Positions 4,193 through 60,730 of a DNA stretch of 64,000 bases are shown here, in pieces; the first letter of the stretch is position 1, and the number at the start of each line of letters is the position of its first letter. Location of the stretch: NCBI GenBank assembly GCA_021813025.1, contig JAKAME010000001.1, positions 2,201-66,200 of the forward strand, written 5' to 3'. The notes under the pieces were generated by a model, which was not told the DNA's origin, ran no database searches, and was given only the letters and a program-made list of their open reading frames with translations. This DNA is from Candidatus Micrarchaeota archaeon. GTDB taxonomy: Archaea > Micrarchaeota > Micrarchaeia > Anstonellales > Anstonellaceae. A program made the translations under genes and the position numbers.

Positions 4193-5308
4193 TCATGCTT
4201 CTACATCCTTCTTATAGATGGGGGCCCCGCTGGCTATTGCAGTCCTGAGCCGCCGGCCAACCAGAGAATACAATTCCTCTGATTTGAATGCCCCCTCAAG
4301 CATGGGCCGTTTTGAAACCAAATCCTCCTCGTGGATTATGCCGCCTGCCTTCAGCCCGCGGGTGGCGAACACGCTTTTTCGCACCAGCTGCCGCGTTGCC
4401 AGCTCGGAAGGCACGGGTTCTTTTTCATGCCTGCCCAGCATAGCAGCATTCTTGTCCAACAGGTGCCTTGACTCTTCTTGCGCCCGGGGCGTCTTTAACT
4501 CCAGCCTGCGTATGAGGGCGACCATCTCCCCCAGCCCGCCGGGCTCCAGCGAGGCGGCATGGTCAGGGCCCTGCATCTTTCTGTCCAGGGTGAAATGCTT
4601 CTCGATTATGCAGGCGCCCAAGCCGACTGCCAGCGCCGGGGCCTCGATTCCCCTGCTGTGGTCGGAATAACCTATGGGAACCGGAAATTCCTTTTTCAGG
4701 GTCAGGATGTTGTTCAGGTTCAGGGAGGAGGGGGGGGCGGGATATTCGCTGGTGCAGTGCAGGATGGCCAGCTGGGTGCAGCCATTGGACTGCAGGAATT
4801 CGTATGCTTTTCTGACCTCCTGCAGGCTGGACATGCCTGTGGAGAGGATGACCGGCTTTCCGCTCTTGGCAGCAGCCTTGAGCAATTGCAGGTTGGTGAT
4901 TTCACCAGACGGGATTTTGTAGGCAGCCACGCCCAGCTTTTCCAAAAGCTCGAAGCTGACGAGGTCAAATGGTGAGGAGAGGAAGAGGATGCCCTTCTTT
5001 TCGCAATAGGTTTTGAGCGTTCGGTAATCCTCTGCCTTGAGCTGCAAACTCTTGAGCATCTCCTGCTGGTTGGCATGGCGCTTGTCATTGGTTTTCTGGT
5101 ATTGGGCTTTGCCGGCCAAGGGGGAGGCGAGCTGCTCAGCCACAAAAGTCTGGAACTTGACCGCGTCTGCCCCCGCCGCATGGGCCGCATCAACAAGCTG
5201 GAGCGCAAGCTTTACGCTGCCGTTGTGGTTGACGCCCGCCTCGGCTATTATGAAGCACGGATGGCCCCGCCCTATGAGCCGGCCTGCGACTGAGAACTCC
5301 TTCTTCAT
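4193..5308 (-). CDS. Nonulosonic acid synthase (NeuB/LegI/PseI family) with C-terminal SAF domain
   Basis: CFIIAEAGVNHNGS...AVKFQTF signature. The C-terminal portion is consistent with an SAF/antifreeze-like domain. Start taken at MKKEFSV. Confidence 0.85.
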   Translation of the reverse strand: MKKEFSVAGRLIGRGHPCFIIAEAGVNHNGSVKLALQLVDAAHAAGADAVKFQTFVAEQLASPLAGKAQYQKTNDKRHANQQEMLKSLQLKAEDYRTLKTYCEKKGILFLSSPFDLVSFELLEKLGVAAYKIPSGEITNLQLLKAAAKSGKPVILSTGMSSLQEVRKAYEFLQSNGCTQLAILHCTSEYPAPPSSLNLNNILTLKKEFPVPIGYSDHSRGIEAPALAVGLGACIIEKHFTLDRKMQGPDHAASLEPGGLGEMVALIRRLELKTPRAQEESRHLLDKNAAMLGRHEKEPVPSELATRQLVRKSVFATRGLKAGGIIHEEDLVSKRPMLEGAFKSEELYSLVGRRLRTAIASGAPIYKKDVEA

Positions 5309-5368
5309 GAACCTGATTTGGCGGGCCCAAGCATTAAAACCCAAGCATTTTGGGGAGGATTGGTGCGC

Positions 5369-6100
5369 CTATTTCTTCCTGCGCTCGCGGGCCCAAAACT
5401 CGGCCCACTTAAAATCCATTTCGTCGTCAATCTCGATGCTGAACTCGCCCCCCACCACAACGTAGCGGGTCTTGTCCGTGATAAAGCGCTTGAGTTGCTC
5501 GTATGCCGCAGTCTCGATGAGGTAGAACGGGCCGCCGAAGTAGGCCTTGGGCAAATCCTGATGGCGGGCGTAATACTTGTCAGGATAGAGGGCGCGCAGA
5601 AGGCCTGTGCCGTCGTCCACTAGGGTCCAGAACGGCGGGTCCTTGGCCTCGAACACCCCGAACACGCTGTCGCAGCGGGGGTCGGTGCGCAGAATCCCGA
5701 TTGCCTTGGCCACGTCCTCCCGCCGCCTGAACGGGGTGGTGGGCATGAGCAGGGCGAAGGCGAGGGGGTATTTGCCATCCTGCCTGAGCAGGCCCAGCCA
5801 GTGTTCCACCACTTCTTTCATTAGCGAGGTGTCCTTGGCAAATTCGGCAGGCCGCTCGATGGCGCGCGCGCCAGCCTTTTTCGCAAGCTCCAGAATCTCC
5901 GCATCGTCGCTGCTCACATACACCCCGCTGAACAGCCCGCTCTTTATGGCGAAATCGATTGTGTGCAGAATCAGCGGCTTGCCGTCAAGCTCGCGCAGGT
6001 TCTTGCGCGGGATTGTCTTGCTGCCCCCGCGCGCGGGGATGAGGCAGGGCATCTTCAGGCTCTCGAAACCTGGCTTGAATGCGACGGCGCTCTTTTTCAT
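5369..6100 (-). CDS. CMP-nonulosonic acid synthetase (acylneuraminate cytidylyltransferase, NeuA/LegF family)
   Basis: IPARGGSKTIPRKN motif. Start ambiguous between 6052 and 6133. Confidence 0.8.
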   Translation of the reverse strand: MKKSAVAFKPGFESLKMPCLIPARGGSKTIPRKNLRELDGKPLILHTIDFAIKSGLFSGVYVSSDDAEILELAKKAGARAIERPAEFAKDTSLMKEVVEHWLGLLRQDGKYPLAFALLMPTTPFRRREDVAKAIGILRTDPRCDSVFGVFEAKDPPFWTLVDDGTGLLRALYPDKYYARHQDLPKAYFGGPFYLIETAAYEQLKRFITDKTRYVVVGGEFSIEIDDEMDFKWAEFWARERRKK

Positions 6101-6111
6101 ACATATCACCT

Positions 6112-7551
6112 TCATAACAATCTGCTGAACCACTGCAGCATGCGCATGCCCACCTCGCCGCTTTTTTCAGGGTGGAACTGGGTGCCGAAAACATTGCCTT
6201 TGCGTATGACAGAGCAGAATTCCTGGCCCCCGTGCACCGAGCTGGCCAGCACCGAGCCCCCGTCCTCGGGCGCCGCGTAGAATGAGTGCACGAAATAGGC
6301 TTCCGAGCCGTCGGGCACGCTCTCAAGCGGAGTTCCATCCCATTGCGCCCCCTTCGGCTTTGAAATCTGGTTCCAGCCGATTTGGGGCACGCGGTAGCCC
6401 GGCTCCCTGACCTCGGGCACAGGCTTGAACGGCAGCACGCGGCCCGGTATTATGCCAAGCCCCCCATGGCGGCCGAATTCGAGACTTTCGGAGAGAAGCA
6501 GCTGCATGCCGAGGCAGATGCCGAAAAACGGCCGGCCGCTCTTCACATAGCCGCGGATGGGGGCGATGAGCCCGCGCTTTTCCAGCTCGCTCATGCCGAA
6601 CCCGAACGCCCCGTCGCCGGGAAGCACGAGCAGCTGGGCCTGCTCTATCTCGGCCGCGCTCGTCACAAGCTTGACAGGATTGCCAAGGTTGGAGAAGGCG
6701 GTGCGCACGCTCTTGAGGTTGCCCGCGCCGTAGTCGATGATGGAGACCTCTTTTGGATTCGGGGAGGGGTTGGCCTGCACGCGGGCAAGCATTGCCTTCC
6801 TTGTCGCGATGCCGGCGCGCGCCAGCTCCTCCTTCACTCCCCCTATGGTGGCGCGGTTGTAGTGCAGTATGGAGGCAAAGCAGGCGCCGTCGCATCCGGT
6901 TTTGCGCAAGCAGTCGGCCACGTCGGCCCCGTCCCGCGCCCCGCCGCAGGCGAGGACAGGGACTGAAACCGAGGATGCGATGCGGCCCAGAAGCTCGTGG
7001 TCATAGCCGGACATCGTCCCTTCCCTGTCCACCGATGTTACCAGAAGCTCGCCGGCGCCGAAGCCCGCCAGCTTTTTCGCCCATTCCAGCGCGTCAAGCC
7101 CCGTGCGCTCGCGGCCGTTGTCAACGTAGCATTCCCATTTCCCTTCATTGAATTTCGCCTCTATCGAGCCGACTATGCACTGCGAGCCGAAGATTTCTGC
7201 AGCCTTGGTAATAAGTTCCGGGTTTCTGGTGGCTGCGGTGTTGATGGCCACCTTGTCCGCCCCCGCGCGCAGGAGCGTGCGCACGTCCTCCACGCTGCGT
7301 ATGCCCCCGCCAACGGTGACAGGTATGTAGATGCCGTTGGACGCCATGTTCTCCACTATTTCGGTGAGGTTGTTGCGCTCATAGAGGCTGGCCACCGTGT
7401 CTATGTAGAGGATTTCGTCAGCTCCCTGCTCGTAATAGCGCTTGGCCAGAACGGCCGGGCTGCCTATGACGCGCAGGCCCTCGAGCTGGATGCCCTTGAC
7501 GACGTTGGGGCCCTTGATGTCCAGGCGGGGTATGATTCGCACCCGTTTCAT
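6112..7551 (-). CDS. Fused imidazole-glycerol-phosphate-synthase-like protein (HisF cyclase domain N-terminal + HisH glutaminase domain C-terminal), glycan-modifying amidotransferase paralogue
   Basis: N-terminal half [10 protein letters not shown]...VTVGGGIR is HisF-like. C-terminal half [11 protein letters not shown]...[11 protein letters not shown]...FVHSF...QFHPEKS is a HisH-like class-I glutamine amidotransferase. Lies between NeuA and the aminotransferase. Confidence 0.8.
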
Positions 7552-51457: not shown

Positions 51458-52369
51458 TCATTTCTTTGCTTTTGCGAGGGCGAATTTCACTATTTTTTCA
51501 GCCACCTGCCCTGCCTTCTCCCCGGCAGATTTGGAGAATTCGGGCGCATGGTTCACTTCCAGCACGGCCGCATGGCCGTCCGGGTATTCGATGAGGTCAA
51601 CGCCATAAATACCTGCTCCAAAGCAGCTGGCCGTCCGATGCACCAGCTCGGCCATCTCGTCCGTCATGCTGAATTCCTCGGCCGCGCCCCCGTGATTGAG
51701 GTTGGTGATGAAAGAGCTTGAGCTGGTCTCTGATATTTTGCGGTAGATGGAGAAGGCAACTTCGTCTCCCACCACAAACACCCGTATGTCGCGCTGGGGC
51801 TTGTCAACATATTCCTGAACATAATACACCTTGTCAGTGTAATGGCCAAGGCTGTCCTTTAGCCCCACCACGGCTTCGGCTGCGTGCTTGTCGCTGATTT
51901 TGCACACCATGCGCCCCCAGCTGCCCACCGGAGGCTTGATGACGCAAGGGTATCCCATCTGTTCAACTGCCTGAAGGGCGGAGGATGGTGAGAAGGCAAG
52001 CAGCACTTTTGGAGTGGGAATGTTTTTTTGCATCAGAAACGCGCTGGTGAGCGCCTTGTCGCCACACAGTGACTGGGCTGAGCTGGAGTTGATGGTGGGC
52101 ACGCCGGCATATTCGGCCAAGCGTGAGAGGTAGAGCGAGCGGGTGAAGGAGGAGGAGCGGGCAAGAATGACATCAAGATTGGAGAGGGAAGGCTCGCCAT
52201 GAAGTGAGAAGGGCGCCTGCTCGTCCCGAATTATGGAAAGCTGGGCGCCGGCCGCCTCGGCCGCCTTTTTGATGGCCATGTTCTCAGGAGTGAGCATGGT
52301 GCAGACTAGACCAAGTTTCGCCATAGCGCCCATCCGTCCATTTGCTGGTAAATCAAAGAAACGAAACAA
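51458..52369 (-). CDS. Second LysX-type ATP-grasp ligase (glutamate--LysW ligase, ArgX-like)
   Basis: Paralogue of the 48202-49056 protein. Adjacent to the second lysW and to argF. Confidence 0.8.
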   Translation of the reverse strand: MFRFFDLPANGRMGAMAKLGLVCTMLTPENMAIKKAAEAAGAQLSIIRDEQAPFSLHGEPSLSNLDVILARSSSFTRSLYLSRLAEYAGVPTINSSSAQSLCGDKALTSAFLMQKNIPTPKVLLAFSPSSALQAVEQMGYPCVIKPPVGSWGRMVCKISDKHAAEAVVGLKDSLGHYTDKVYYVQEYVDKPQRDIRVFVVGDEVAFSIYRKISETSSSSFITNLNHGGAAEEFSMTDEMAELVHRTASCFGAGIYGVDLIEYPDGHAAVLEVNHAPEFSKSAGEKAGQVAEKIVKFALAKAKK

Positions 52370-52372
52370 CCC

Positions 52373-52549
52373 CTACTCGCCGAAGTCCTCCTCGATTTGC
52401 GGCGCGTGGCCGATTTGCATTGGGATGAGGGAGAGCACTTCCAGGCGCGCGCCGCAGTCCGCGCAGCTTAGCAGCTGGCCGACTTCGGTCTGGGGTGCGA
52501 GGGCCTTGTGGCCGCCGCAGTCCGGGCATTCGATTTGGTTTGCGTTCAT
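52373..52549 (-). CDS. lysW: Second LysW-family carrier protein
   Basis: 58-aa MNANQIECPDCGGHK...CADCGARLEV...EEDFGE. Confidence 0.75.
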   Translation of the reverse strand: MNANQIECPDCGGHKALAPQTEVGQLLSCADCGARLEVLSLIPMQIGHAPQIEEDFGE

Positions 52550-52700
52550 GGCGTGGCACCTCTGCCGGGTTTGTTGAAAGAGATGGGCCGGCTTCGCGGA
52601 TTTAAAAGCTAGGTGAATTTGGGGACAAAATTGGTTTGAAAAGTATTAATTGAAACAAGAAGAGAGAGGTTAGAGGCTCGCGCGGATGGCGGCGGGTTTT

Positions 52701-53750
52701 TCAGAGGTTGGCGCGGATGGCTTCAACCATCTGCGCCGTGCTGGCGCTCCCGCCAACATCCTTGGTAACGATGCGCTGCTCATAGGCGCGCGCAATCGCC
52801 TTCTCCAGCCGGACGGCCTCCTTCTTGCAGCCGATGCGCTCCAGCATCATGGCTGCCGAGCGCAGCATGCCGGTGGGGTTTGCAATGCCCCTGCCTGCGA
52901 TGTCTGGAGCCGAGCCGTGCACAGGCTCGAAGAGGGAGTGCTTCTCGCCGATGTTGGCGGATGGGGCCACGCCAAGCCCTCCAATCAGCGCGCTGGCCTC
53001 GTCAGAGAGGATGTCGCCGAAGAGGTTGGTGGTTGCGATGACCTGGAAATCCTGCGGGCTCTTCACCAGGCGCATGGCAACTGAATCCACAATGGCGTCG
53101 TCGCAGGAAATGCCGGCGCGGGCGTATGACTTGGCGATTTCGCGGCCTGCCTCCAAAAACAGCCCGTCGGTCTTGCGAAGCACGTTGGCCTTGTGAACCA
53201 GAGTGACGCGGCTGAACTTGCGCGCCTTGGCGTAATCGAAGGCGAACTTGACTATTCTCTCACTGGCGTGGCGGGTAATCACCCGCAGAGCGGTGGCCCG
53301 CTGGCCGTCAGACTCCTCTATGCTAGAGTAAAGGCCTTCGGTGTTTTCGCGCACTATGGCGAAATGGAGAGGGGAAGCCGAAGGCGGCTGCTGGAGGCCG
53401 CCAGATGCCCAAGCAGGCACCGACACGTTTGGCAAAGAATCGAACGGGCGCAAATTGGCGTAAAGGTCAAGCTCTTGGCGCAGGGTGATGATGGCGCTCT
53501 TGTAGTTTGGTATGTTGGGAGGAGTGGTGACTGCGCAGAAGAGGACGGAATCGCAGGCGCGTGCGGAATCTATGGTGGCCTGCGGCAGGGGGGTGCCCTG
53601 CTGCTTGAATGTGGCATAGCCAGCATGGCCCTCCACCCATTCGACGTCTACCAGCTCGTCTATGACTGAGCGCGCGCTGGCCATGAGCTCGGGGCCGACG
53701 CCGTCGCCGTTGATGTATAGGATGCTTTTGGTCATGGGAATCAAATCCAA
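52701..53750 (-). CDS. Homoisocitrate/isopropylmalate dehydrogenase (beta-decarboxylating dehydrogenase family)
   Basis: ICDH/IPMDH family motifs (NLFGDILSDEASALIGGLG). Confidence 0.85.
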   Translation of the reverse strand: MDLIPMTKSILYINGDGVGPELMASARSVIDELVDVEWVEGHAGYATFKQQGTPLPQATIDSARACDSVLFCAVTTPPNIPNYKSAIITLRQELDLYANLRPFDSLPNVSVPAWASGGLQQPPSASPLHFAIVRENTEGLYSSIEESDGQRATALRVITRHASERIVKFAFDYAKARKFSRVTLVHKANVLRKTDGLFLEAGREIAKSYARAGISCDDAIVDSVAMRLVKSPQDFQVIATTNLFGDILSDEASALIGGLGVAPSANIGEKHSLFEPVHGSAPDIAGRGIANPTGMLRSAAMMLERIGCKKEAVRLEKAIARAYEQRIVTKDVGGSASTAQMVEAIRANL

Positions 53751-53756
53751 TTCTGA

Positions 53757-54386
53757 TTAGAGCCTGCGCTTGCGCGAGGATGGTTTTGTGGCAGAGGGCT
53801 TCCTGCCAGGGCTCGCCGAGGCCGGCGTTTGGCCATTTTTTGTGGCCGGGCCATTTCCAACTCCGGCCGGAAGCTCGCTCTCACCGCTGCCGGCGCTGGA
53901 TTCCAGTTCCTCGATTTTGTGGCTCTTGAGGAAATTCAAAATGCCTCCAAATTCACGCAGCTTTTGCATGAGGGGCGGGATGGAGACTGGGGCCGAAGTG
54001 CGCCGCGTCTTGTTCACCAGCCGCCCATTCTCTATCGCCATCTCGTCCCCATCCTGCACCGAATCCACGAATGCTGCAGGCGCGACCAGCGCCATCACCC
54101 CGTTGTTGATGCAGTTGCGGTAGAAGATGCGCGCATAAGACTTGGCCACGATGGCCATAAGGCCGTTGGCCTTGAGCGCATATACTGCCGTTTCGCGCGA
54201 GGAGCCGCAGCCGAAATTTCGGCCTGCCACCAAGAAGTCGCCTGACCTGACGCCCTTGGCATATTCCGGCCTGTGCTCGATGAAGGCTATTCGCCCAAGC
54301 TCGGCCATGTCAAGTGTCATGTTGTAGCGGCCAGGGGTGATGAGGTCGGTGTTGACCGAGTCTGCGAACTTCCATGCGCGTGCCAT
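53757..54386 (-). CDS. Homoaconitase/3-isopropylmalate dehydratase small subunit with about 50-aa basic disordered C-terminal tail
   Basis: LeuD-like swivel domain. The tail SAGSGESELPAGVGNGPATKNGQTPASASPGRKPSATKPSSRKRRL is atypical. Confidence 0.85.
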   Translation of the reverse strand: MARAWKFADSVNTDLITPGRYNMTLDMAELGRIAFIEHRPEYAKGVRSGDFLVAGRNFGCGSSRETAVYALKANGLMAIVAKSYARIFYRNCINNGVMALVAPAAFVDSVQDGDEMAIENGRLVNKTRRTSAPVSIPPLMQKLREFGGILNFLKSHKIEELESSAGSGESELPAGVGNGPATKNGQTPASASPGRKPSATKPSSRKRRL

Positions 54387-54402
54387 AGTATCACATCCGA
54401 TG

Positions 54403-55668
54403 TCATGCCCTGAAGTACTTGCGCGGGTCGGCCAGCTTGCCTTCTATTGCCGAGGCGGCGGCCGTGGCAGGCGAGGCGAGATAGATTTTGGCCTTTGGCG
54501 AGCCCATCCTGCCGGTGAAATTGCGGTTGGAGGTGGAGACGCACACGTCGTCATCATCCAGCACGCCCATATGGCGGCCCAAGCATGCGCCGCAGCCTGG
54601 GGAGGTGATGATTGCGCCCATGCGCGAGAACTCGGCTAGTAGGCCGCGCTCGAGCGCCTGCTCAAACACCTGGCGCGAGGCGGGCGTGATGATGAACTTG
54701 AGGTTTTTGGCTATCTTCCTGCCCTTGAGGATGTTGTAGGCGACTTCCAAATCCTCAATCCTGCAATTGGTGCAGGAGCCTAAGAAAACTTGGGTGATGG
54801 GCGTGCCTGCCACTGCTGAGACCGGCACGTCGCGGTCGATGTCTGGCGGGCAGGCAACAGTTGGCTCGATTTTCGAGACATCGTATGTGAGGGTTTGCTC
54901 GAATTCAGCGTTTGGGTCGGAAGCCGTGCGCTCAAAGGGGCGATAGCGGCCCTGTCTTCGCAAATATTCCTCAGTTCTCCTGTCTGCCGGCACGATGCCG
55001 GTCTTGGCCCCTATTTCAGCGCACATGTTGGTGAGAGTCATGCGAGAGGGCACGTCGAACTGGGCTATGGCGCTGCCGCCGAATTCCACCACCTTGTAAT
55101 TGGCCCCCTCTGCCGAGAGGTCCTTGGCAATGGAGAGGATGACGTCCTTGGGATAGACGCCGCCGGGCAGCTTGCCTTCCAAATTAATGCGAATGGTGCC
55201 AGGCACGCGCGTCCATATTTTGCCCGTAGCCATCGCAACGGCCGCATCGGTGGAGCCAAAGCCCATGCACAGCGCGCCCGTGCCGCCGCCGGTGGGCGTG
55301 TGGCTGTCGGCGCCGGCCAGCAGGGTGTTTGGATAGAGGAAGCGCTCTGACATCACCTGATGGCATACTCCGTCCGTAATGATGGGAATGCCCTGCTCCT
55401 GCGCGAACTTCCTAATCTTGGTCTGCAATTGCGCGGCCTGCACGCTGGGGGCGGGGTAGGCGTGGTCGAAGAAGATGTGGATTTTCTTCGGGTCAAAGAC
55501 CTTTTTCGCTATCTGATGGAATGGCTCGATGGCCCATGCGCAGGTGGTGTCGTGCGCCAGCACGTAATCCACCCTCACCACTGCCAAATCCCCGACTGAG
55601 AGCGGGCGGCCCGCATGGGCTGAGAGAATCTTCTGCGCCAGAGTCTGGGGGGAGGTGCGGGAAGCCAT
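54403..55668 (-). CDS. Homoaconitase/3-isopropylmalate dehydratase large subunit
   Basis: Aconitase family with Fe-S cysteine motifs (CGACLG, GSCTNCR). Confidence 0.9.
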   Translation of the reverse strand: MASRTSPQTLAQKILSAHAGRPLSVGDLAVVRVDYVLAHDTTCAWAIEPFHQIAKKVFDPKKIHIFFDHAYPAPSVQAAQLQTKIRKFAQEQGIPIITDGVCHQVMSERFLYPNTLLAGADSHTPTGGGTGALCMGFGSTDAAVAMATGKIWTRVPGTIRINLEGKLPGGVYPKDVILSIAKDLSAEGANYKVVEFGGSAIAQFDVPSRMTLTNMCAEIGAKTGIVPADRRTEEYLRRQGRYRPFERTASDPNAEFEQTLTYDVSKIEPTVACPPDIDRDVPVSAVAGTPITQVFLGSCTNCRIEDLEVAYNILKGRKIAKNLKFIITPASRQVFEQALERGLLAEFSRMGAIITSPGCGACLGRHMGVLDDDDVCVSTSNRNFTGRMGSPKAKIYLASPATAAASAIEGKLADPRKYFRA

Positions 55669-55674
55669 GGCGGG

Positions 55675-55944
55675 TTACACCTCATTCGCCCCGTGCGTGT
55701 CAAGCACCAGATAGGAGGTGGCCTGCAGCACGCCGGGGCTGGCGCGCACTGCCTCGACCACGTCATTGATGGCCTGAATTGAGGGCGAGCGCACAAGAAC
55801 GAGAAGGTCGAGCGAGCCGGTGAGCTCCCAGACCTGACTGACGCCATTGATTTTGAGCAGTGCTTCGGAAATGGACGCGGTTTTGACTTTCTCGTCCGTG
55901 ACCGCGCCGATGAAGATGCTGATGTTGTTTTCCACATGAATCAC
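55675..55944 (-). CDS. Stand-alone RAM (Lrp/AsnC C-terminal ligand-binding) domain protein
   Basis: 89 aa with a beta-alpha-beta-beta-alpha-beta pattern. ISEALLKINGVSQVWELTGSLDLLVLV resembles AsnC C-terminal domains. No HTH. Confidence 0.55.
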   Translation of the reverse strand: MIHVENNISIFIGAVTDEKVKTASISEALLKINGVSQVWELTGSLDLLVLVRSPSIQAINDVVEAVRASPGVLQATSYLVLDTHGANEV

Positions 55945-55962
55945 CTTGTGCTTTTCCGCTCC

Positions 55963-57045
55963 TCACACTTCAAATTCAAACATGTCGCCTTCCTTTTCCT
56001 TTAGGCGGATGAGGGCCTTGGCGACCTGCTCGTCTGTCAGATGCAGGCCCAGAGCGTCGGACAAATATCTTACCACGTTCTTGCCGGAATACTCGCCCAC
56101 CACCACGCGCCGGCGTATACCCAAAGAGGTTGGGGAGAAAGCCTCATAGGCCTTGCCATCGGTTCGCAGCACCGCGCCCAAGTGGGTTCCTCCCTTGTGG
56201 CGGAATACGTTTTCTCCGACTATGGGGCTGAAGGGGTCGGCCGGAAGGCCGGTGATGGATGAGAAAAGGCGCGAAAGCTTCGGAAGCTCGACTGCCTTCA
56301 TCTCGTTTCGCTGGCCATAGAGCACTTGGAGAGCCATAACCACTTCGGCCAAGCGCGGGATGCCTGCGCGCTCTCCCGCGCCGTTGATGGAGGCGTGGAT
56401 GCAGTCTGCTCCGGCTTCTATTCCAGCCAGCGAATTTGCAAGCGCAAGGCCCAAGTCATTGTGGCAGTGCAAATCTAGGCCAATGTTTGGAAGGGCGGCG
56501 CGCACGTGGCGGATGAGGGCATGCATGCTCGAAGGAGTCATGATGCCGACAGTATCAGTAATAGATATTCTATCCGCTCCCGCCTCGGCCGCCACTTTGG
56601 CAAACTGCATCAGCTCCTCCATGTTGGTTCTTGACGCATCCTCGCATGTGAAGCGCATTTTCACCCCATGGCTTTTGGCATACTCAATCATTTTTCGCGT
56701 CTGCTCCAAGGCAGCTTGCCTGTCCATGTGCAGCTTGTGCTCCAGATGAACCGGGGAGGTGGAGAGGTAGATGGCAATCCATTGGGGGTCGAATTTGAGC
56801 AGGAGGTCGATATCGGATTGGGTGGCTCTTCCGTGGAGGATGACATTGGAGCGGAAGCCTGCTTGCAAGAGGTCTTTGGCTGTCTGCTCGCTTCTCTGGC
56901 TCACTATTGGAGAGTATTCGATGAAATCCACACCCAAGGTGTTGAGGCCGTGGGCTATCTTGAGCGCCTGCTCGGGGCTGAAACGCACTCTTGTGGCCTG
57001 CGCGCCCTCGCGCAGGGTGGAATCTAGCACCAGAATGTTTTGCAT
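55963..57045 (-). CDS. Homocitrate synthase / 2-isopropylmalate synthase family (short form without LeuA regulatory domain)
   Basis: DTLREGAQ N-terminus. HxH metal motif LHCHNDLGLA. About 360 aa. Confidence 0.85.
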   Translation of the reverse strand: MQNILVLDSTLREGAQATRVRFSPEQALKIAHGLNTLGVDFIEYSPIVSQRSEQTAKDLLQAGFRSNVILHGRATQSDIDLLLKFDPQWIAIYLSTSPVHLEHKLHMDRQAALEQTRKMIEYAKSHGVKMRFTCEDASRTNMEELMQFAKVAAEAGADRISITDTVGIMTPSSMHALIRHVRAALPNIGLDLHCHNDLGLALANSLAGIEAGADCIHASINGAGERAGIPRLAEVVMALQVLYGQRNEMKAVELPKLSRLFSSITGLPADPFSPIVGENVFRHKGGTHLGAVLRTDGKAYEAFSPTSLGIRRRVVVGEYSGKNVVRYLSDALGLHLTDEQVAKALIRLKEKEGDMFEFEV

Positions 57046-57411
57046 AAGTTGGAATGAGGCTGGCTTTAATTAAATACTAAATGTTGCAGGTATAACAAAA
57101 TAAGATGAGGAGGAACGGACGGACTGATACCTTTTCGTTAGCCTGACCGACGGGGTTGTTTGGCTGATGACGAGTTTTGGACTAGTGAAACTTCGACACG
57201 CCCCTAAAAGAAAACGAAAGACGCGGAAATCATAGGAAACCACGGGAGAAAACCAGAACTGTTCGATAGTTTAAAACGTTCCTACTGCAATTTCTGTCAG
57301 ACTATGGATATCAAGATAACGCAGATAACCAAAATAGAGTGCAAACAGTGCGGGAAAACGAGATTGATAACAACAAGGATAAAATAACCTCAAGAACGGA
57401 TAAGTGATTGA

Positions 57412-58056
57412 ATGGCAAAAGTAATTGAAAAAAGAGAGGTAATAATCGCAGGAGTAGGTGCAGGTCGCATGATTTTATCCGAGATTGCAGACTGTGCGCA
57501 TGAATTCGGGGGCGGTAGATTACCTGCTGTATTGTATGATACACATATGGGAGGTATCGCGTGCGCCAAATCGCCGACTAAAGGCGTTTTAATCGGCAAA
57601 GAAATCTTTGGAGGGAGCGGTGCGTTTGGAGAAATTAAAAAATGCAGAATTTCCGCCTTAAAAGAACGGAAAAAGATTGGCGATGCAATTGCAGGTTCAA
57701 AAGTTGTAATCGTTGTGACATGTCTTGGAGGCGGCACTGGATCCGGCATTGCGCCGGTTGTGTGCGATATTGCAGGCAAACAAGGCGCATTTGTGATTGC
57801 GGTTGCCACTTATCCTGCGAAGTGTATCCCTAAGACATGGAAAAAATGCAGAGAGATGGCAGAAACAGGGCTGGATGGACTCAAAAAACATGCAGACGTT
57901 TTGATGATAGTGGATAGTGAAAAGATACGCAGGCATATGGAAAAAAATACCGAGTGGCCGGATTTGTGTTTGGTTTGTAATCGTATTGCGGCAAGGATGG
58001 TCTGGGACATATGCAAGGGTAAGGGCTTACAGCAAGTGTGGGATGCAAAGGATTGA
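57412..58056 (+). CDS. Tubulin/FtsZ-superfamily GTPase-domain-only protein (214 aa, lacks the C-terminal T7 domain)
   Basis: T1-like IAGVGAGRMILSEI. Tubulin signature VVTCLGGGTGSGIAPVV (GGGTGSG). FtsZ-like ADVLMIVDSEKI block. Confidence 0.5.
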   Translation: MAKVIEKREVIIAGVGAGRMILSEIADCAHEFGGGRLPAVLYDTHMGGIACAKSPTKGVLIGKEIFGGSGAFGEIKKCRISALKERKKIGDAIAGSKVVIVVTCLGGGTGSGIAPVVCDIAGKQGAFVIAVATYPAKCIPKTWKKCREMAETGLDGLKKHADVLMIVDSEKIRRHMEKNTEWPDLCLVCNRIAARMVWDICKGKGLQQVWDAKD

Positions 58057-58088
58057 CAACTGAGAAGGAAAATATCGAGGACAAGAAA

Positions 58089-58700
58089 ATGAACGACTCT
58101 GACGAAAATTTTTATAAATGCGGCACGCCCATGTCCAAACGGCATAATGAACGATGTAAAGAGTGCAAAACGCGGGTTTTCCAGCTACTATGTGGGCTAT
58201 TCGGAGAAGTAAAACGTGAGCATAATTTGGGGATTAGCAGCGGTTTAGATTCGTTCGAGCATTCCACAAACTATGCTCACTTGAGTAACATCCTCCATAT
58301 GCTTCAGGAATATCGTGGCTACAACAACTTCGTCAGAAGAAGGCGGATGACCAATGTGGATTTTTTTGTTCCCGCCCACGGGCTTATCGTTGAATTCGAT
58401 GAATCCCAACACTTCACTAAACCCCGTCAAATCGCGTTAGATAACTATCCTGCCGACCTCAAACTTGGATTTAATCGGAAACAATGGGTTGAACGATGCG
58501 TGCATCTGCATAAGACGGACAACGACCCGCCCTACCGCGACGAGACACGGGCATGGTATGACACATTGAAGGACTTTGCGCCGTCAATCCTCGATTTGAA
58601 GCCTACCGTTCGTTTATACTCCAAAGATTGTGTTTGGTGCGAATTGGATCTGGGGAATAGCGGAAACATAGCGGAGTTCAAGAGGAGGTTGGGCGTATGA
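58089..58700 (+). CDS. Zinc-ribbon protein with Vsr/DUF559-like (PD-(D/E)xK-related) nuclease-fold motif
   Basis: YKCGTPMSKRHNERCKECK zinc ribbon. VDFFVPAHGLIVEFDESQHF resembles the D...(I/V)E(V/F)DGxxH core of restriction-endonuclease-like proteins. Start ambiguous (58038 or 58089). Confidence 0.4.
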   Translation: MNDSDENFYKCGTPMSKRHNERCKECKTRVFQLLCGLFGEVKREHNLGISSGLDSFEHSTNYAHLSNILHMLQEYRGYNNFVRRRRMTNVDFFVPAHGLIVEFDESQHFTKPRQIALDNYPADLKLGFNRKQWVERCVHLHKTDNDPPYRDETRAWYDTLKDFAPSILDLKPTVRLYSKDCVWCELDLGNSGNIAEFKRRLGV

Positions 58701-59530
58701 AATGCGCAGTGGTTTCATTTATTATGCATGTAGATGGCGGAACTTCAAGCAAGCCGAAACGCGCTGGCAAAGCCAAACGCGGAAATAGGACGCCGAACAA
58801 CGCTGACCTCGTGTTGGAAGTTTTAGAAAAGACCAAAGATTTAGCGATGGTTCTATTCTCAGGCTGGACGCTTGATAATGAAAACGAGTTGAATCGCGTG
58901 ATTGATGGCCTCCACGCGCCTCATCCGACATTCATTTTAGAAGTAGGTAGCGGATACGATACAAACGACAATCCACATTCTCCAGCAGGTTTTTACGTGA
59001 TTCAAGATGGCAAACTCAAACTCAATAAGGTGAAACAGTGGTTTGCTACGAGCGAAGAAGCCAACCGTAATGAAAAAAATCTTATAGAAAACTATCTGAC
59101 TACGCTAGAAAAAGATAGATGTTTTAGTGTCGATGGTAAGCGAGTTCGTCTGATTATCTGTGGTGAGAATAACGTCCTCCGAAACGAACAATCTCATAAT
59201 AACAAAGTTTATTGCCGAGCGGAAGACAAAGAATCGCAGACAAAGCTGGAATCGATACTTAACGACACCGACATCTTCATCAACCCGGCTCACACGCCGA
59301 TGGGCAACTTGGGAAAGATGAAAAAACGCTGGAAGTTCTTGAGTGAAACCAACAGGGTGCTATTGTTCGTAACTAACGAGTGCGCGAAGGCAGGAGTGAA
59401 AAATTTCGAGCCAAACTTATCCAAGCAGTCGCTCAAGTACGCATTTATCAACGGAAAAGAAACTGAATTCTCGAAATTGGCGTCTGGGAAACAATATCAA
59501 ATATCACAGGTTGATATTCCGACAAATTGA
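58697..59530 (+). CDS. Hypothetical protein (277 aa) of the island operon
   Basis: ATGA-coupled to the upstream gene. No family recognised. Confidence 0.45.
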   Translation: MKCAVVSFIMHVDGGTSSKPKRAGKAKRGNRTPNNADLVLEVLEKTKDLAMVLFSGWTLDNENELNRVIDGLHAPHPTFILEVGSGYDTNDNPHSPAGFYVIQDGKLKLNKVKQWFATSEEANRNEKNLIENYLTTLEKDRCFSVDGKRVRLIICGENNVLRNEQSHNNKVYCRAEDKESQTKLESILNDTDIFINPAHTPMGNLGKMKKRWKFLSETNRVLLFVTNECAKAGVKNFEPNLSKQSLKYAFINGKETEFSKLASGKQYQISQVDIPTN

Positions 59531-59650
59531 CCCATAAACGAGAGCAGCCCTAGGGACACCTCCCTCATTTCCGCGTCTTGGGCTGTTTTAGGCGTTTTTC
59601 GCGTAGCTCAGGCAGACGAGTTCTCTCCTAACGGACGGACTGCCATCCCT

Positions 59651-60730
59651 TCATCTCTTATACACGCAAATCACGTCCCCGTCTTGAAGAACGTGGTCCA
59701 ACCCGGCCTTTTGCCCCGGAAATTTGGCGGACGGCCCCCACACCTGCGCGTAGCGGAACAGCTTCTTCAAATCCCGGTGCAGCCGCTCGCACGCATCCCC
59801 GACGTTGGAGCCTGCGCGCATCATCATGGGGGTGGAATCGGCATCCTCATTTCTGCGTTTGGTGTAGATGCGAATGAGCTGCAGTTTCTCCCATATTTTC
59901 TCCTTAAGCTCCTCCACCCCCTGATTTTTCTCTGCGGAAAGCGGCACGAAGCCGTAGGGAATTGCCTTGAGGAACTGCGGCTGGACCAAGTCGATTTTGT
60001 TGAGAAGGGTAATCGAGGGAGTGTATTTGCGCGAGCCTTCCAGCACGTCGATGAATTCATCAACAGTTGCATCCTGGCGAAGCATCACTTCGGCGTTGTG
60101 GATGCCCTGCTCGTGCAGAATAGCGATAATCATGCGCTCGTTCAGGTGCGTGAGCGGCACGGTGGCATGTATGTTGACGCCTCCGCGCAGCTTGGGATGC
60201 ACCAGCAGGTTGGGCCTTGACTTGTCCACGCGTATGCCGATGCCCTCAAGCTCCTCAATCAGCTTGGGCCGATAGAGAGGGTCGAATACGTCGAGCAGGA
60301 GCAGGATGAGGTCTGCGTTTCGCGCCACCGCTAAAACTTCCTTGCCACGCCCGGAGCCCTCTTTCGCGCCTGCAATAATGCCGGGCAGGTCCAGCAGCTG
60401 GATTTTCGCGCCCCGATAATCCAGGGCGCCGGGCACCACGGTCAGGGTGGTGAAGTGGTAGGCCGCAGTCTTGGATTTGGCGCCGGTGAGCGCGTTGAGA
60501 AGGGTGGATTTGCCGGTTGAGGGCAGGCCGATGAACACCACTGTTGCGTCGCCTGACTTCTTGACGTCAAACCCGCCTGTCTGCAATCCTGATTTCTTGG
60601 GGGCGGAGATGGCTTTCTTCAGGTGGGCTATTTTGGACTTGAGGATGCCGATGTGGAATTCGGTGGCTTTGTTTTTCTGGGTGCGGGCCAGCTCGTCCTC
60701 TAGCTCCTTGAGTTTGTCGGCAGAACCCAT
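59651..60730 (-). CDS. DRG/Obg-family GTPase with C-terminal TGS domain
   Basis: G1 GLPSTGKSTLLN, G3 DLPGII, G4 NKID. TGS-like C-terminus. Confidence 0.85.
   Translation of the reverse strand: MGSADKLKELEDELARTQKNKATEFHIGILKSKIAHLKKAISAPKKSGLQTGGFDVKKSGDATVVFIGLPSTGKSTLLNALTGAKSKTAAYHFTTLTVVPGALDYRGAKIQLLDLPGIIAGAKEGSGRGKEVLAVARNADLILLLLDVFDPLYRPKLIEELEGIGIRVDKSRPNLLVHPKLRGGVNIHATVPLTHLNERMIIAILHEQGIHNAEVMLRQDATVDEFIDVLEGSRKYTPSITLLNKIDLVQPQFLKAIPYGFVPLSAEKNQGVEELKEKIWEKLQLIRIYTKRRNEDADSTPMMMRAGSNVGDACERLHRDLKKLFRYAQVWGPSAKFPGQKAGLDHVLQDGDVICVYKR

Follow-up and report, generated by a model that had tools for sequence, protein, structure and literature searches.

The window studied here, a stretch of 64,000 nucleotides of contig JAKAME010000001.1 (assembly GCA_021813025.1), carries a gene for a 214-amino-acid protein that consists of the nucleotide-binding domain (NBD) of FtsZ and the core helix H7 and that lacks the C-terminal domain. 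This protein, which we call FtsZ-NBD, represents a new architecture within a well-known superfamily; it is extremely rare, it is under selection and it is found in variable, defence-type hot spots. FtsZ and tubulin share a two-part design, in which each subunit's nucleotide-binding half becomes complete only with the activating half of the subunit that follows, so that GTP hydrolysis is coupled to polymerisation. The gene and the parts of its product are located as follows.

57412-58056, + strand: gene for FtsZ-NBD, a stand-alone FtsZ nucleotide-binding domain plus helix H7, 214 amino acids (profile, alignment, AlphaFold2 model, Foldseek)
57451-57468, + strand: T1-like loop of FtsZ-NBD
57955-58017, + strand: core helix H7 of FtsZ-NBD, residues 182-202 (AlphaFold2 model)
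58018-58053, + strand: tail of FtsZ-NBD at the T7 position, possibly vestigial

An earlier, sequence-only reading of the window took the product of this gene for a tubulin/FtsZ homologue with the GTP-binding domain only, and this was borne out. The open reading frame (ORF) 57412-58056 is present and its translation agrees with the 214-residue sequence quoted there. The Pfam profile PF00091 (Tubulin/FtsZ GTPase domain) matched residues 39-174 with an E value of 6.5e-18 and 66.1 bits, the curated cut-off being 33 bits. The NCBIfam ftsZ profile TIGR00065 gave a partial match of 92.1 bits (profile positions 62-201 of 353), as compared with an equivalog cut-off of 295.2 bits. FtsZ of M. jannaschii was the top sequence match in the PDB (E 8e-16). 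An AlphaFold2 model, made from an 11-sequence alignment, had a predicted local distance difference test (pLDDT) of 84 and a predicted template-modelling score (pTM) of 0.85; its top Foldseek matches were the FtsZ proteins of S. aureus, B. subtilis and M. jannaschii, with query-normalised template-modelling (TM) scores of 0.76-0.83 over ~195 columns. The motifs on which the sequence-only reading relied are all present: VVTCLGGGTGSGIAPVV is the T4 signature, IAGVGAGRMIL lies at the T1 position, and the FtsZ-like block ADVLMIVDSEKI corresponds to strand S6 and loop T6. Within the T4 signature, GGGTGSG occupies residues 106-112 (nucleotides 57727-57747) and is invariant across all family members. 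By its profile matches, its T4 signature and its Rossmann-like NBD fold with H7, FtsZ-NBD is a true member of the FtsZ/tubulin superfamily. The PF00091 search and the structure comparison of the model confirmed FtsZ and not a non-tubulin Rossmann family; together with the PDB sequence match, they rule out a chance occurrence of GGGTGSG in such a protein. The start that gives 214 residues is correct, because the alignment of the homologues begins at residue 5 and takes in the T1 loop, which a 195-residue database version of the protein would cut off.

In the AlphaFold2 model the whole nucleotide-binding domain (strands S1-S6 and helices) is followed by H7, and an 11-residue tail of low confidence (pLDDT <50) closes the protein where FtsZ has its T7 loop. 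Alignment with full-length archaeal FtsZs showed that FtsZ-NBD is without H8-H10 and S7-S10, which form the GTPase-activating domain, and without the linker and the C-terminal peptide. No match to PF12327 (FtsZ_C) was found in the protein, which ends at residue 214, directly past H7. A hidden Markov model (HMM) of full-length FtsZ was run against all six-frame ORFs of the 64-kb window; only ORF 57412-58056 matched, and no other FtsZ was seen. A C-terminal half that has been split off or frameshifted is therefore not present nearby. The earlier statement that an activating C-terminal domain is missing, and that canonical hydrolysis is not to be expected, thus held good. Self-activated canonical GTP hydrolysis by FtsZ-NBD is not expected, since the activating C-terminal domain is missing.

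Two descriptions in the sequence-only reading need to be narrowed. The label 'GTPase-domain-only' is right in that the C-terminal domain is lacking; the truncation does not fall within the GTPase domain, and the whole NBD is retained together with H7. The claim that it ends before any T7 is right as to the activating domain and too strong otherwise, since H7 is present, the tail aligns to T7 and an acidic residue is kept. The T7 synergy loop NxDxxD itself is absent. The tail reads GLQQVWDAKD, which aligns to GLINLDFxD of FtsZ given a one-residue shift, and the corresponding tails of the window protein and its orthologues (VWDAK in the window, LFEQK, IFEKR and LFEK) have a common hydrophobic-aromatic-acidic-x-basic motif, with one acidic position (D/E) kept in all four. 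The tail could be a vestige of T7; we take this as an observation and not as evidence for activity.

Several loops of the nucleotide-bearing face differ from canonical FtsZ throughout the family. In T1, GGGGxN is replaced by GxGAGR with a three-residue insertion; T2 is DTH in place of NTD, T3 is GA(F/Y)G in place of GAGG, and T5 is P(A/T)xxxPKT in place of PFxFEG, with loss of the ribose-binding Glu. The T4 motif GGGTG(S/T)G is unchanged and invariant, and Asn is retained at the N/D position of H7. The canonical Asn of T6 is Ser in the window protein and Asn in its orthologues. From what is established for FtsZ, FtsZ-NBD can probably bind guanine nucleotide; its T4 is intact and a T1-like loop is present.

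Orthologues of FtsZ-NBD were found in four other contig families (L001/L002, L007, L025 and a partial copy, P0004). The four full-length proteins (window, L001, L007 and L025) are 66-73% identical and their ends lie no more than four residues apart; the pairwise ratio of non-synonymous to synonymous substitution rates (dN/dS) among them is 0.21-0.33. A pseudogene or an assembly artefact is ruled out because the orthologues end alike and have these low ratios, and no remnant of a C-terminal domain occurs in any frame, as would be left by a frameshift or a split gene. Conservation in the family is highest in the T4-H4 segment and in the loops on the nucleotide-bearing side: conserved blocks are T1 (GxGAGRLILSEI), T2 (DTH), T4 through H4 (TCLGGGTGSGIAPVVCDIA) and PKTWKK, and a further block, IV(D/N)xEKIRR, is conserved with few variable positions. 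All family-invariant residues are intact in the window copy. We conclude from the substitution pattern that the FtsZ-NBD gene is a functional truncated gene under purifying selection.

The family is extremely rare. Among 5.8 billion protein clusters, a word-indexed search turned up no more than four close relatives. An exhaustive HMM search of 1.84 billion representatives at 50% identity found a single cluster of the family, at 434 bits; the runner-up was a tandem FtsZ-FtsZ protein at 131 bits, and the remainder were generic FtsZ at 116 bits or less. A scan of metagenomes contributed one further locus, L025. No relative was found in IMG/VR, GenBank phages and PLSDB plasmids contained ordinary FtsZ only (at most 37% identity to FtsZ-NBD), and the matches in BFVD were full-length phage FtsZ or PhuZ only. 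A viral or plasmid origin of FtsZ-NBD is thus unsupported by these four collections.

The gene lies in a small island of foreign composition, the parts of which are listed here.

57100-59652, no strand: horizontally acquired mosaic island (borders against a sister genome; GC profile)
57114-57126, + strand: left copy of an exact 13-bp direct repeat, AACGGACGGACTG (repeat search)
59630-59642, + strand: right copy of the same exact 13-bp direct repeat, AACGGACGGACTG (repeat search)
57218-57230 and 59567-59579, no strand: left arm and partner arm of an exact 13-bp inverted repeat (repeat search)
57232-57390, + strand: remnant of a small CxxC...CxxC zinc-ribbon ORF (translation, ORF list)
58089-58700, + strand: gene 2, DUF7255 family, DUF559/Vsr-like endonuclease motif, 203 amino acids (homologue alignment, weak profiles)
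58697-59530, + strand: gene 3, divergent nitrilase/carbon-nitrogen-hydrolase fold, 277 amino acids (AlphaFold2 model, Foldseek, alignment)

The island is 2.5 kb long with a GC content of 45%, as compared with 58% for the window. It is bordered by genes for a homocitrate synthase (55963-57045, - strand) and a DRG-type GTPase (59651-60730, - strand), and the products of the flanking genes share at least 90% identity with proteins from Candidatus Marsarchaeota metagenome-assembled genomes (MAGs). One such MAG, the sister genome GCA_023488825.1 (L020), is 90-91% identical to the window at the nucleotide level up to position 57099 and again from 59653, which sets the limits of the island at 57100 and 59652. 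At this site L020 holds instead, at 4899-5933, a gene for a 344-amino-acid SIR2-like protein with a CxxC...CxxC zinc ribbon, which matched PADLOC SIR2 models with an E value of 1e-6 and Pfam SIR2 weakly. The island therefore fills a variable, horizontally exchanged hot spot, at which the sister genome has a member of a defence-associated family. Identical copies of the island are present in three other assemblies.

FtsZ-NBD is encoded by the first intact gene of this co-directional, low-GC, three-gene island. Gene 2 follows after 32 nucleotides, and the start of gene 3 overlaps the stop of gene 2 by four nucleotides; the earlier proposal that the FtsZ-like gene heads an island operon is supported by this arrangement. 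Upstream, the zinc-ribbon remnant has no ATG, GTG or TTG before its first CxxC, and a 27-amino-acid ATG ORF (57304-57387) is left over; the gene is probably in decay, or else is read from a non-canonical start. The direct repeat has an expected 0.03 chance matches in the window and is absent from L020. The arms of the inverted repeat, likewise absent from the L020 version of the site, lie roughly symmetrically, ~50-90 nucleotides inside the direct repeats. These repeats just inside the borders may be a scar of integration, duplication or recombination. By blastn, the segments of the island have different closest relatives: L021 5820-5958, a gene of 51 amino acids, for the zinc-ribbon ORF (57250-57388, 82% nucleotide identity), L001 and L007 for the FtsZ-NBD gene (57400-58028, 77%), and L021 5960-6824 for gene 3 (58656-59520, 80%). 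The small zinc-ribbon ORF and gene 3 adjoin each other in L021; the FtsZ-NBD gene and gene 2 come between them in the window. The island is thus a mosaic of three segments.

The loci of the orthologues are built differently from the island. In L001/L002, L007 and L025 the FtsZ-NBD gene lies between genes for HAD-type hydrolases, the larger of which is of the TIGR02253 type, and an unrelated, variable gene of ~180-213 codons, which abuts or overlaps the start of a gene for a 460-amino-acid beta-CASP metallo-beta-lactamase protein. The latter is an RNase J-family ribonuclease (TIGR00649, 132 bits), and L025 continues into IleRS and RFC. In our reading, the stretch from the HAD gene to RNase J is a frame of housekeeping genes, belonging to a lineage of euryarchaeal type, around a variable slot. 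A conserved four-gene system of HAD hydrolase, FtsZ-NBD, variable protein and metallo-beta-lactamase was considered and set aside, since RNase J, TIGR02253, IleRS and RFC look like housekeeping genes. Although the RNase J gene of L021 is 89% identical to that of L007, its slot is without an FtsZ-NBD gene and holds genes for a 156-amino-acid zinc-ribbon protein, the 51-amino-acid zinc-ribbon protein and a gene 3 homologue. The FtsZ-NBD gene therefore behaves as exchangeable, accessory cargo. The gene of ~180-213 codons between the HAD_2 and RNase J genes (L001, L007, L021 and L025) is itself hypervariable: it is unrelated between lineages, with flanks that are 70-89% identical.

The surroundings of L001 contain an MmeI-type restriction-modification (R-M) system, a HARE-HTH/PD-(D/E)xK protein, a CARF-HTH regulator, a ClpP-like protease, a Schlafen/AlbA_2 protein and a HerA/DUF87-type ATPase, so that the wider neighbourhood looks like a defence island. 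It also contains, at 5054-6706, a second FtsZ relative, which is fused to ankyrin repeats and has GISWSN, with no acidic residue, at the T7 position. FtsZ-NBD is not a recent duplicate of this protein or of a 199-amino-acid FtsZ-domain protein of L021: against the profile of the FtsZ-NBD family the two scored 65 and 35 bits, like generic FtsZ.

Gene 2 belongs to a large and strongly conserved family, with homologues in 612 clusters whose named members are bacterial and archaeal. Twenty-one aligned homologues are 44-59% identical to it, and the alignment shows as invariant HxERCxxCK, VDF...VEFDESQH (VDF...IVEFDESQH in the window), DNDPPYRDEQRAWYD and four cysteines that probably form a Zn site. 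Profile matches were weak: DUF7255 at E 0.003 (29 bits for the homologue P0028), DUF559 at E 0.0012, and, in PADLOC-DB 2.0, a marginal match to mREase_II only (E 0.007). The PDB entry 3hrl, an 'endonuclease-like protein', was matched at E 0.66 and has the same VDF...IVExDxxQH motif. The profile evidence, though weak, is convergent and indicates a Vsr/DUF559-type endonuclease fold. Some members of the family carry an additional N-terminal domain, PF26345, according to precomputed annotation. Gene 3 has 17 homologues, in whose alignment Cys155, within ICGEN, is invariant. Its AlphaFold2 model (pLDDT 84) matched in the PDB, by Foldseek, nitrilase-superfamily amidases or the glutaminase domains of NAD synthetases exclusively, with E values down to 3e-6 and TM scores of ~0.5. 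PADLOC-DB 2.0 gave no match for gene 3 or for FtsZ-NBD.

In three unrelated genomes a gene 2 homologue is followed by an abutting or overlapping partner, either of the nitrilase-fold type (~270 amino acids) or an unrelated protein of ~335 amino acids, and in none of them is there an FtsZ-like gene upstream. Loci of the two-gene module are window 58089-59530, L014 2301-3648, L016 5001-6564 and L018 5001-6581, and in each of these four a partner comes directly after the DUF7255 gene. Genes 2 and 3 are thus a self-contained, widespread mobile module, found as a rule without FtsZ. A role as dedicated activators of FtsZ-NBD is unlikely for them, because the four module loci inspected for this have no FtsZ-like gene. 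The DUF7255 protein and its partner look like an undescribed restriction-like or defence module.

To the left of the island, at 51458-57045 (- strand), the window holds what looks like a complete archaeal alpha-aminoadipate cluster for lysine biosynthesis. Its members are a LysX-like ATP-grasp protein, a 58-amino-acid LysW-like zinc-ribbon carrier, homoisocitrate dehydrogenase, the small and large subunits of homoaconitase, an AsnC-type regulator and the homocitrate synthase named above; these names rest on ORF translations and on Pfam labels on L020 only.

Other short or fused FtsZ-domain proteins came to light in the searches. P0158 (L029 5001-5648) is a 215-amino-acid, NBD-only protein that ends in NLDIPDR at the T7 position; it is present on 12 contigs, and a gene for an 836-amino-acid FtsK/HerA-like ATPase lies ~1.6 kb upstream of it. 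P0147 (L027 106-789) is another independent NBD-only short FtsZ, and the 199-amino-acid protein of L021 (192-791) is encoded next to a gene for a CARF-HTH regulator. Among the fusions, the TIR-FtsZ protein P0143 (L032 2686-4083) is encoded beside a ThsB-type TIR gene and a transposase gene, P0155 is an HD-CE-FtsZ fusion, and P0140-P0142 and P0144 are tandem FtsZ-FtsZ proteins of 730-840 amino acids. NBD-only and effector-fused FtsZ modules thus recur. P0158, the 199-amino-acid L021 protein, TIR-FtsZ, HD-CE-FtsZ and FtsZ-ankyrin resemble FtsZ-NBD in being FtsZ NBDs outside the division protein, in element- or defence-like neighbourhoods. They differ from it in scoring 35-98 bits against the FtsZ-NBD profile, whereas true members score 393-434 bits, and by this measure they are independent truncations or fusions. 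A literature search found no report on a natural NBD-only FtsZ, nor on FtsZ or tubulin domains in defence systems, and no characterised example of these short or fused proteins.

Compared with canonical FtsZ (TIGR00065; M. jannaschii FtsZ1, 1W58; S. aureus FtsZ, 3VOA), FtsZ-NBD has the same fold of NBD and H7, with a TM score of ~0.8, and 30-36% identity over the NBD, the archaeal FtsZs being the nearest full-length sequences. It differs in lacking PF12327, the linker, the C-terminal peptide and the NxDxxD of T7, and in the altered T1, T2, T3 and T5. It is not a canonical division FtsZ: its score is below that of the equivalog, and the C-terminal domain and T7 are wanting.

The sequence-only reading had also linked the protein to the truncated FtsZL1 type and to membrane-associated operons. 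This was not borne out; FtsZ-NBD is much nearer to canonical FtsZ, and nothing points to an association with membranes. FtsZl1 proteins, which occur in archaea and bacteria and are non-essential, are ~1000 amino acids long, with a coiled coil, an alpha-helical C-terminal domain and family-specific inserts between T1 and T4; H5 is their last alignable element, the region T6-H7 being unalignable, and their operons encode a vWA-domain protein, a distinct GTPase and OmpA-family proteins (PMC2875224). The two have in common that they are divergent FtsZ-superfamily proteins without elements beyond H5-H7 that are needed for canonical filament contacts. In contrast, FtsZ-NBD is a single domain of 214 amino acids with no coiled coil, S6, T6 and H7 align and are modelled as in canonical FtsZ, and its neighbours are nuclease-fold and nitrilase-fold genes, with no vWA or OmpA match. 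Set against the published description, its length, architecture, alignable H6-H7 and operon content rule out membership of FtsZl1.

In function, FtsZ-NBD most resembles, by analogy, laboratory N-terminal-domain constructs and bottom-face mutants of FtsZ. Oliva, Cordell and Lowe reportedly found in 2004 that a separate N-terminal domain of T. maritima FtsZ binds nucleotide and that GTPase activity needs the C-terminal domain. Engineered fragments, bottom-face mutants and cappers such as MciZ behave as would be predicted for FtsZ-NBD. The fragments and mutants are laboratory constructs and MciZ is an unrelated peptide, whereas FtsZ-NBD is a naturally selected family with diverged top-face loops.

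What FtsZ-NBD does in the cell we infer only from these comparisons and from its genomic setting. In FtsZ filaments the nucleotide lies on the face of the NBD and is hydrolysed only once the T7 loop of the next subunit inserts, and the interface contributed by the second subunit comes mostly from its C-terminal domain (H10, S9, H8 and T7) (PMC8936486, PMC9897490). The growing end is the bottom, which exposes T7, and subunits join through their GTP-bound top face; FtsZ mutants of the bottom interface are toxic and block division, and MciZ caps the T7-exposing end (PMC8936486, PMC9897490). Having no C-terminal domain, FtsZ-NBD would therefore not stimulate hydrolysis in a neighbour, would have no bottom face and would not propagate a filament. 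In any FtsZ-type head-to-tail contact, the lack of a bottom face would therefore make it a terminal subunit only.

The reading that we prefer, and put forward tentatively as a possibility, is that FtsZ-NBD caps or sequesters a full-length partner of the FtsZ family as a nucleotide-loaded terminal subunit. It would act in trans upon such a protein, a candidate target being the division FtsZ of the donor lineage or an FtsZ-fusion protein from the same kind of hot spot. Its nucleotide face would dock on the T7 face of the target, at the growing end of the filament, and filaments would be capped or monomers sequestered. FtsZ-NBD would then be the natural counterpart of the engineered bottom-face mutants, carried by a mobile, defence-type island as a growth-arrest or regulatory factor. 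Consistent with this are the fold and domain limits, the shared truncated end, the dN/dS values, the conserved nucleotide face and the status of the gene as hot-spot cargo, as well as the occurrence of FtsZ modules in conflict-type architectures (TIR-FtsZ, HD-CE-FtsZ and FtsZ-ankyrin) and of P0158 as an independent NBD-only protein.

A number of points weigh against capping or sequestration. Throughout the family, T2 (DTH) places His at the position equivalent to D46 of S. aureus FtsZ, where the D46A mutation abolishes assembly (PMC8936486), and residues for the canonical interface and for the handling of Mg2+ and the gamma-phosphate are changed in T1, T2, T3 and T5. Given the altered T2, T3 and T5 and the lost ribose Glu, nucleotide binding itself, though probable, is not certain, and the fit of FtsZ-NBD to a generic FtsZ bottom face appears doubtful. 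Any partner would have to be specific, because T2, T3 and T5 depart from canonical FtsZ. The six-frame HMM search found no other FtsZ in the 64-kb window of this Marsarchaeota (TACK) host, and no full-length FtsZ partner is encoded on the island; the target may be absent from the present host. The FtsZ-like proteins encoded near the family's loci in L001 and L021 are no closer to it than generic FtsZ (65 and 35 bits).

The genes that follow FtsZ-NBD suggest a different role, the chief competitor of the capping model, namely that of a GTP-sensing or switch subunit that gates the neighbouring nuclease in a defence- or restriction-like module, responding to GTP, GTP depletion or a viral factor and making no contact with cytoskeletal FtsZ. 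In all four genomic contexts the gene has a co-directional follower of ~180-213 codons after a gap of 14-42 nucleotides. The follower in the window has the DUF559/Vsr-like nuclease fold, and those of L001/L025 and L007 have D...ExK-type motifs (CDIVL..WIEIKP and CDIVAD..WIELKF, respectively) on a motif reading only. However, the follower is not conserved, there being three mutually unrelated sequences, and those of L001 and L007 had no match in Pfam, NCBIfam, PADLOC or the PDB, which leaves the nuclease label unconfirmed. The setting is suggestive of defence, with the SIR2-like gene at the hot spot of the sister genome and, around L001, the MmeI-type R-M, CARF-HTH, Schlafen/AlbA_2 and HerA/DUF87-type ATPase genes; moreover, the TIR-FtsZ and HD-CE-FtsZ fusions couple FtsZ domains to effector domains. 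FtsZ-NBD and its followers, on the other hand, are without a PADLOC match beyond the marginal one of gene 2. A dependence of the nuclease on FtsZ-NBD is also hard to reconcile with the self-contained nature of the DUF7255 protein and its partner, of which there are 612 gene 2 clusters and whose inspected loci elsewhere have no FtsZ-like gene, and with L021, which retains an unrelated follower of 197 amino acids before RNase J in a slot without FtsZ-NBD. We consider such a switch rather unlikely.

That FtsZ-NBD is an ordinary, lineage-specific FtsZ paralogue, a regulator of division or shape in an uncultivated euryarchaeal-type lineage and a passenger in Marsarchaeota with no role in conflict, is in our view improbable. 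Many non-canonical archaeal FtsZ paralogues of unknown role have been described (PMC9723716), and the gene is under purifying selection. In L001, L007 and L025 it stands in a syntenic frame of probable housekeeping genes (HAD TIGR02253 and RNase J, with IleRS and RFC in L025), whose levels of identity are comparable to its own. Yet in L021 the slot has been replaced despite the 89%-identical RNase J, so that the gene behaves as accessory; it has crossed between phyla and entered a hot spot where the sister genome has a SIR2-like gene; and its family, in contrast to CetZ and other lineage-wide paralogues, is extremely rare. It is very improbable that the protein is a non-functional passenger in its present host, intact but without role or partner in Marsarchaeota and heading to decay: the island does retain the un-ameliorated GC content of its donor, the adjoining zinc-ribbon ORF has already lost its start codon and the window has no other FtsZ, but the ORF is full-length with every family-invariant residue in place, three other assemblies hold identical island copies, and the explanation would concern the present host only and leave the family unexplained.

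A broader reading reaches beyond FtsZ-NBD itself. Stand-alone and fused FtsZ NBD modules (FtsZ-NBD, TIR-FtsZ, HD-CE-FtsZ and FtsZ-ankyrin) might form an unrecognised class of cytoskeleton-derived components of conflict systems, archaeal and bacterial, in which GTP-dependent head-to-tail association would be the activation switch. The NBD-only proteins would in that case be chain terminators, or decoys that control the switch or detect viral interference with FtsZ. We regard this generalisation as unlikely, and offer it as speculation.

A naturally selected first half on its own is a clean natural experiment on the two-part design of FtsZ and tubulin. The outcome may be a built-in filament terminator, a GTP switch detached from polymerisation or a new activating partner, and any of these would widen the known roles of the superfamily. 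The travel of the gene through hot spots, together with its TIR- and HD-fused cousins, makes it a testable proposition that cytoskeletal GTPase modules have been recruited into archaeal host-parasite conflict. Should FtsZ-NBD prove to cap filaments potently, it would also offer a genetic tool, ready for use, against FtsZ-based division in archaea.

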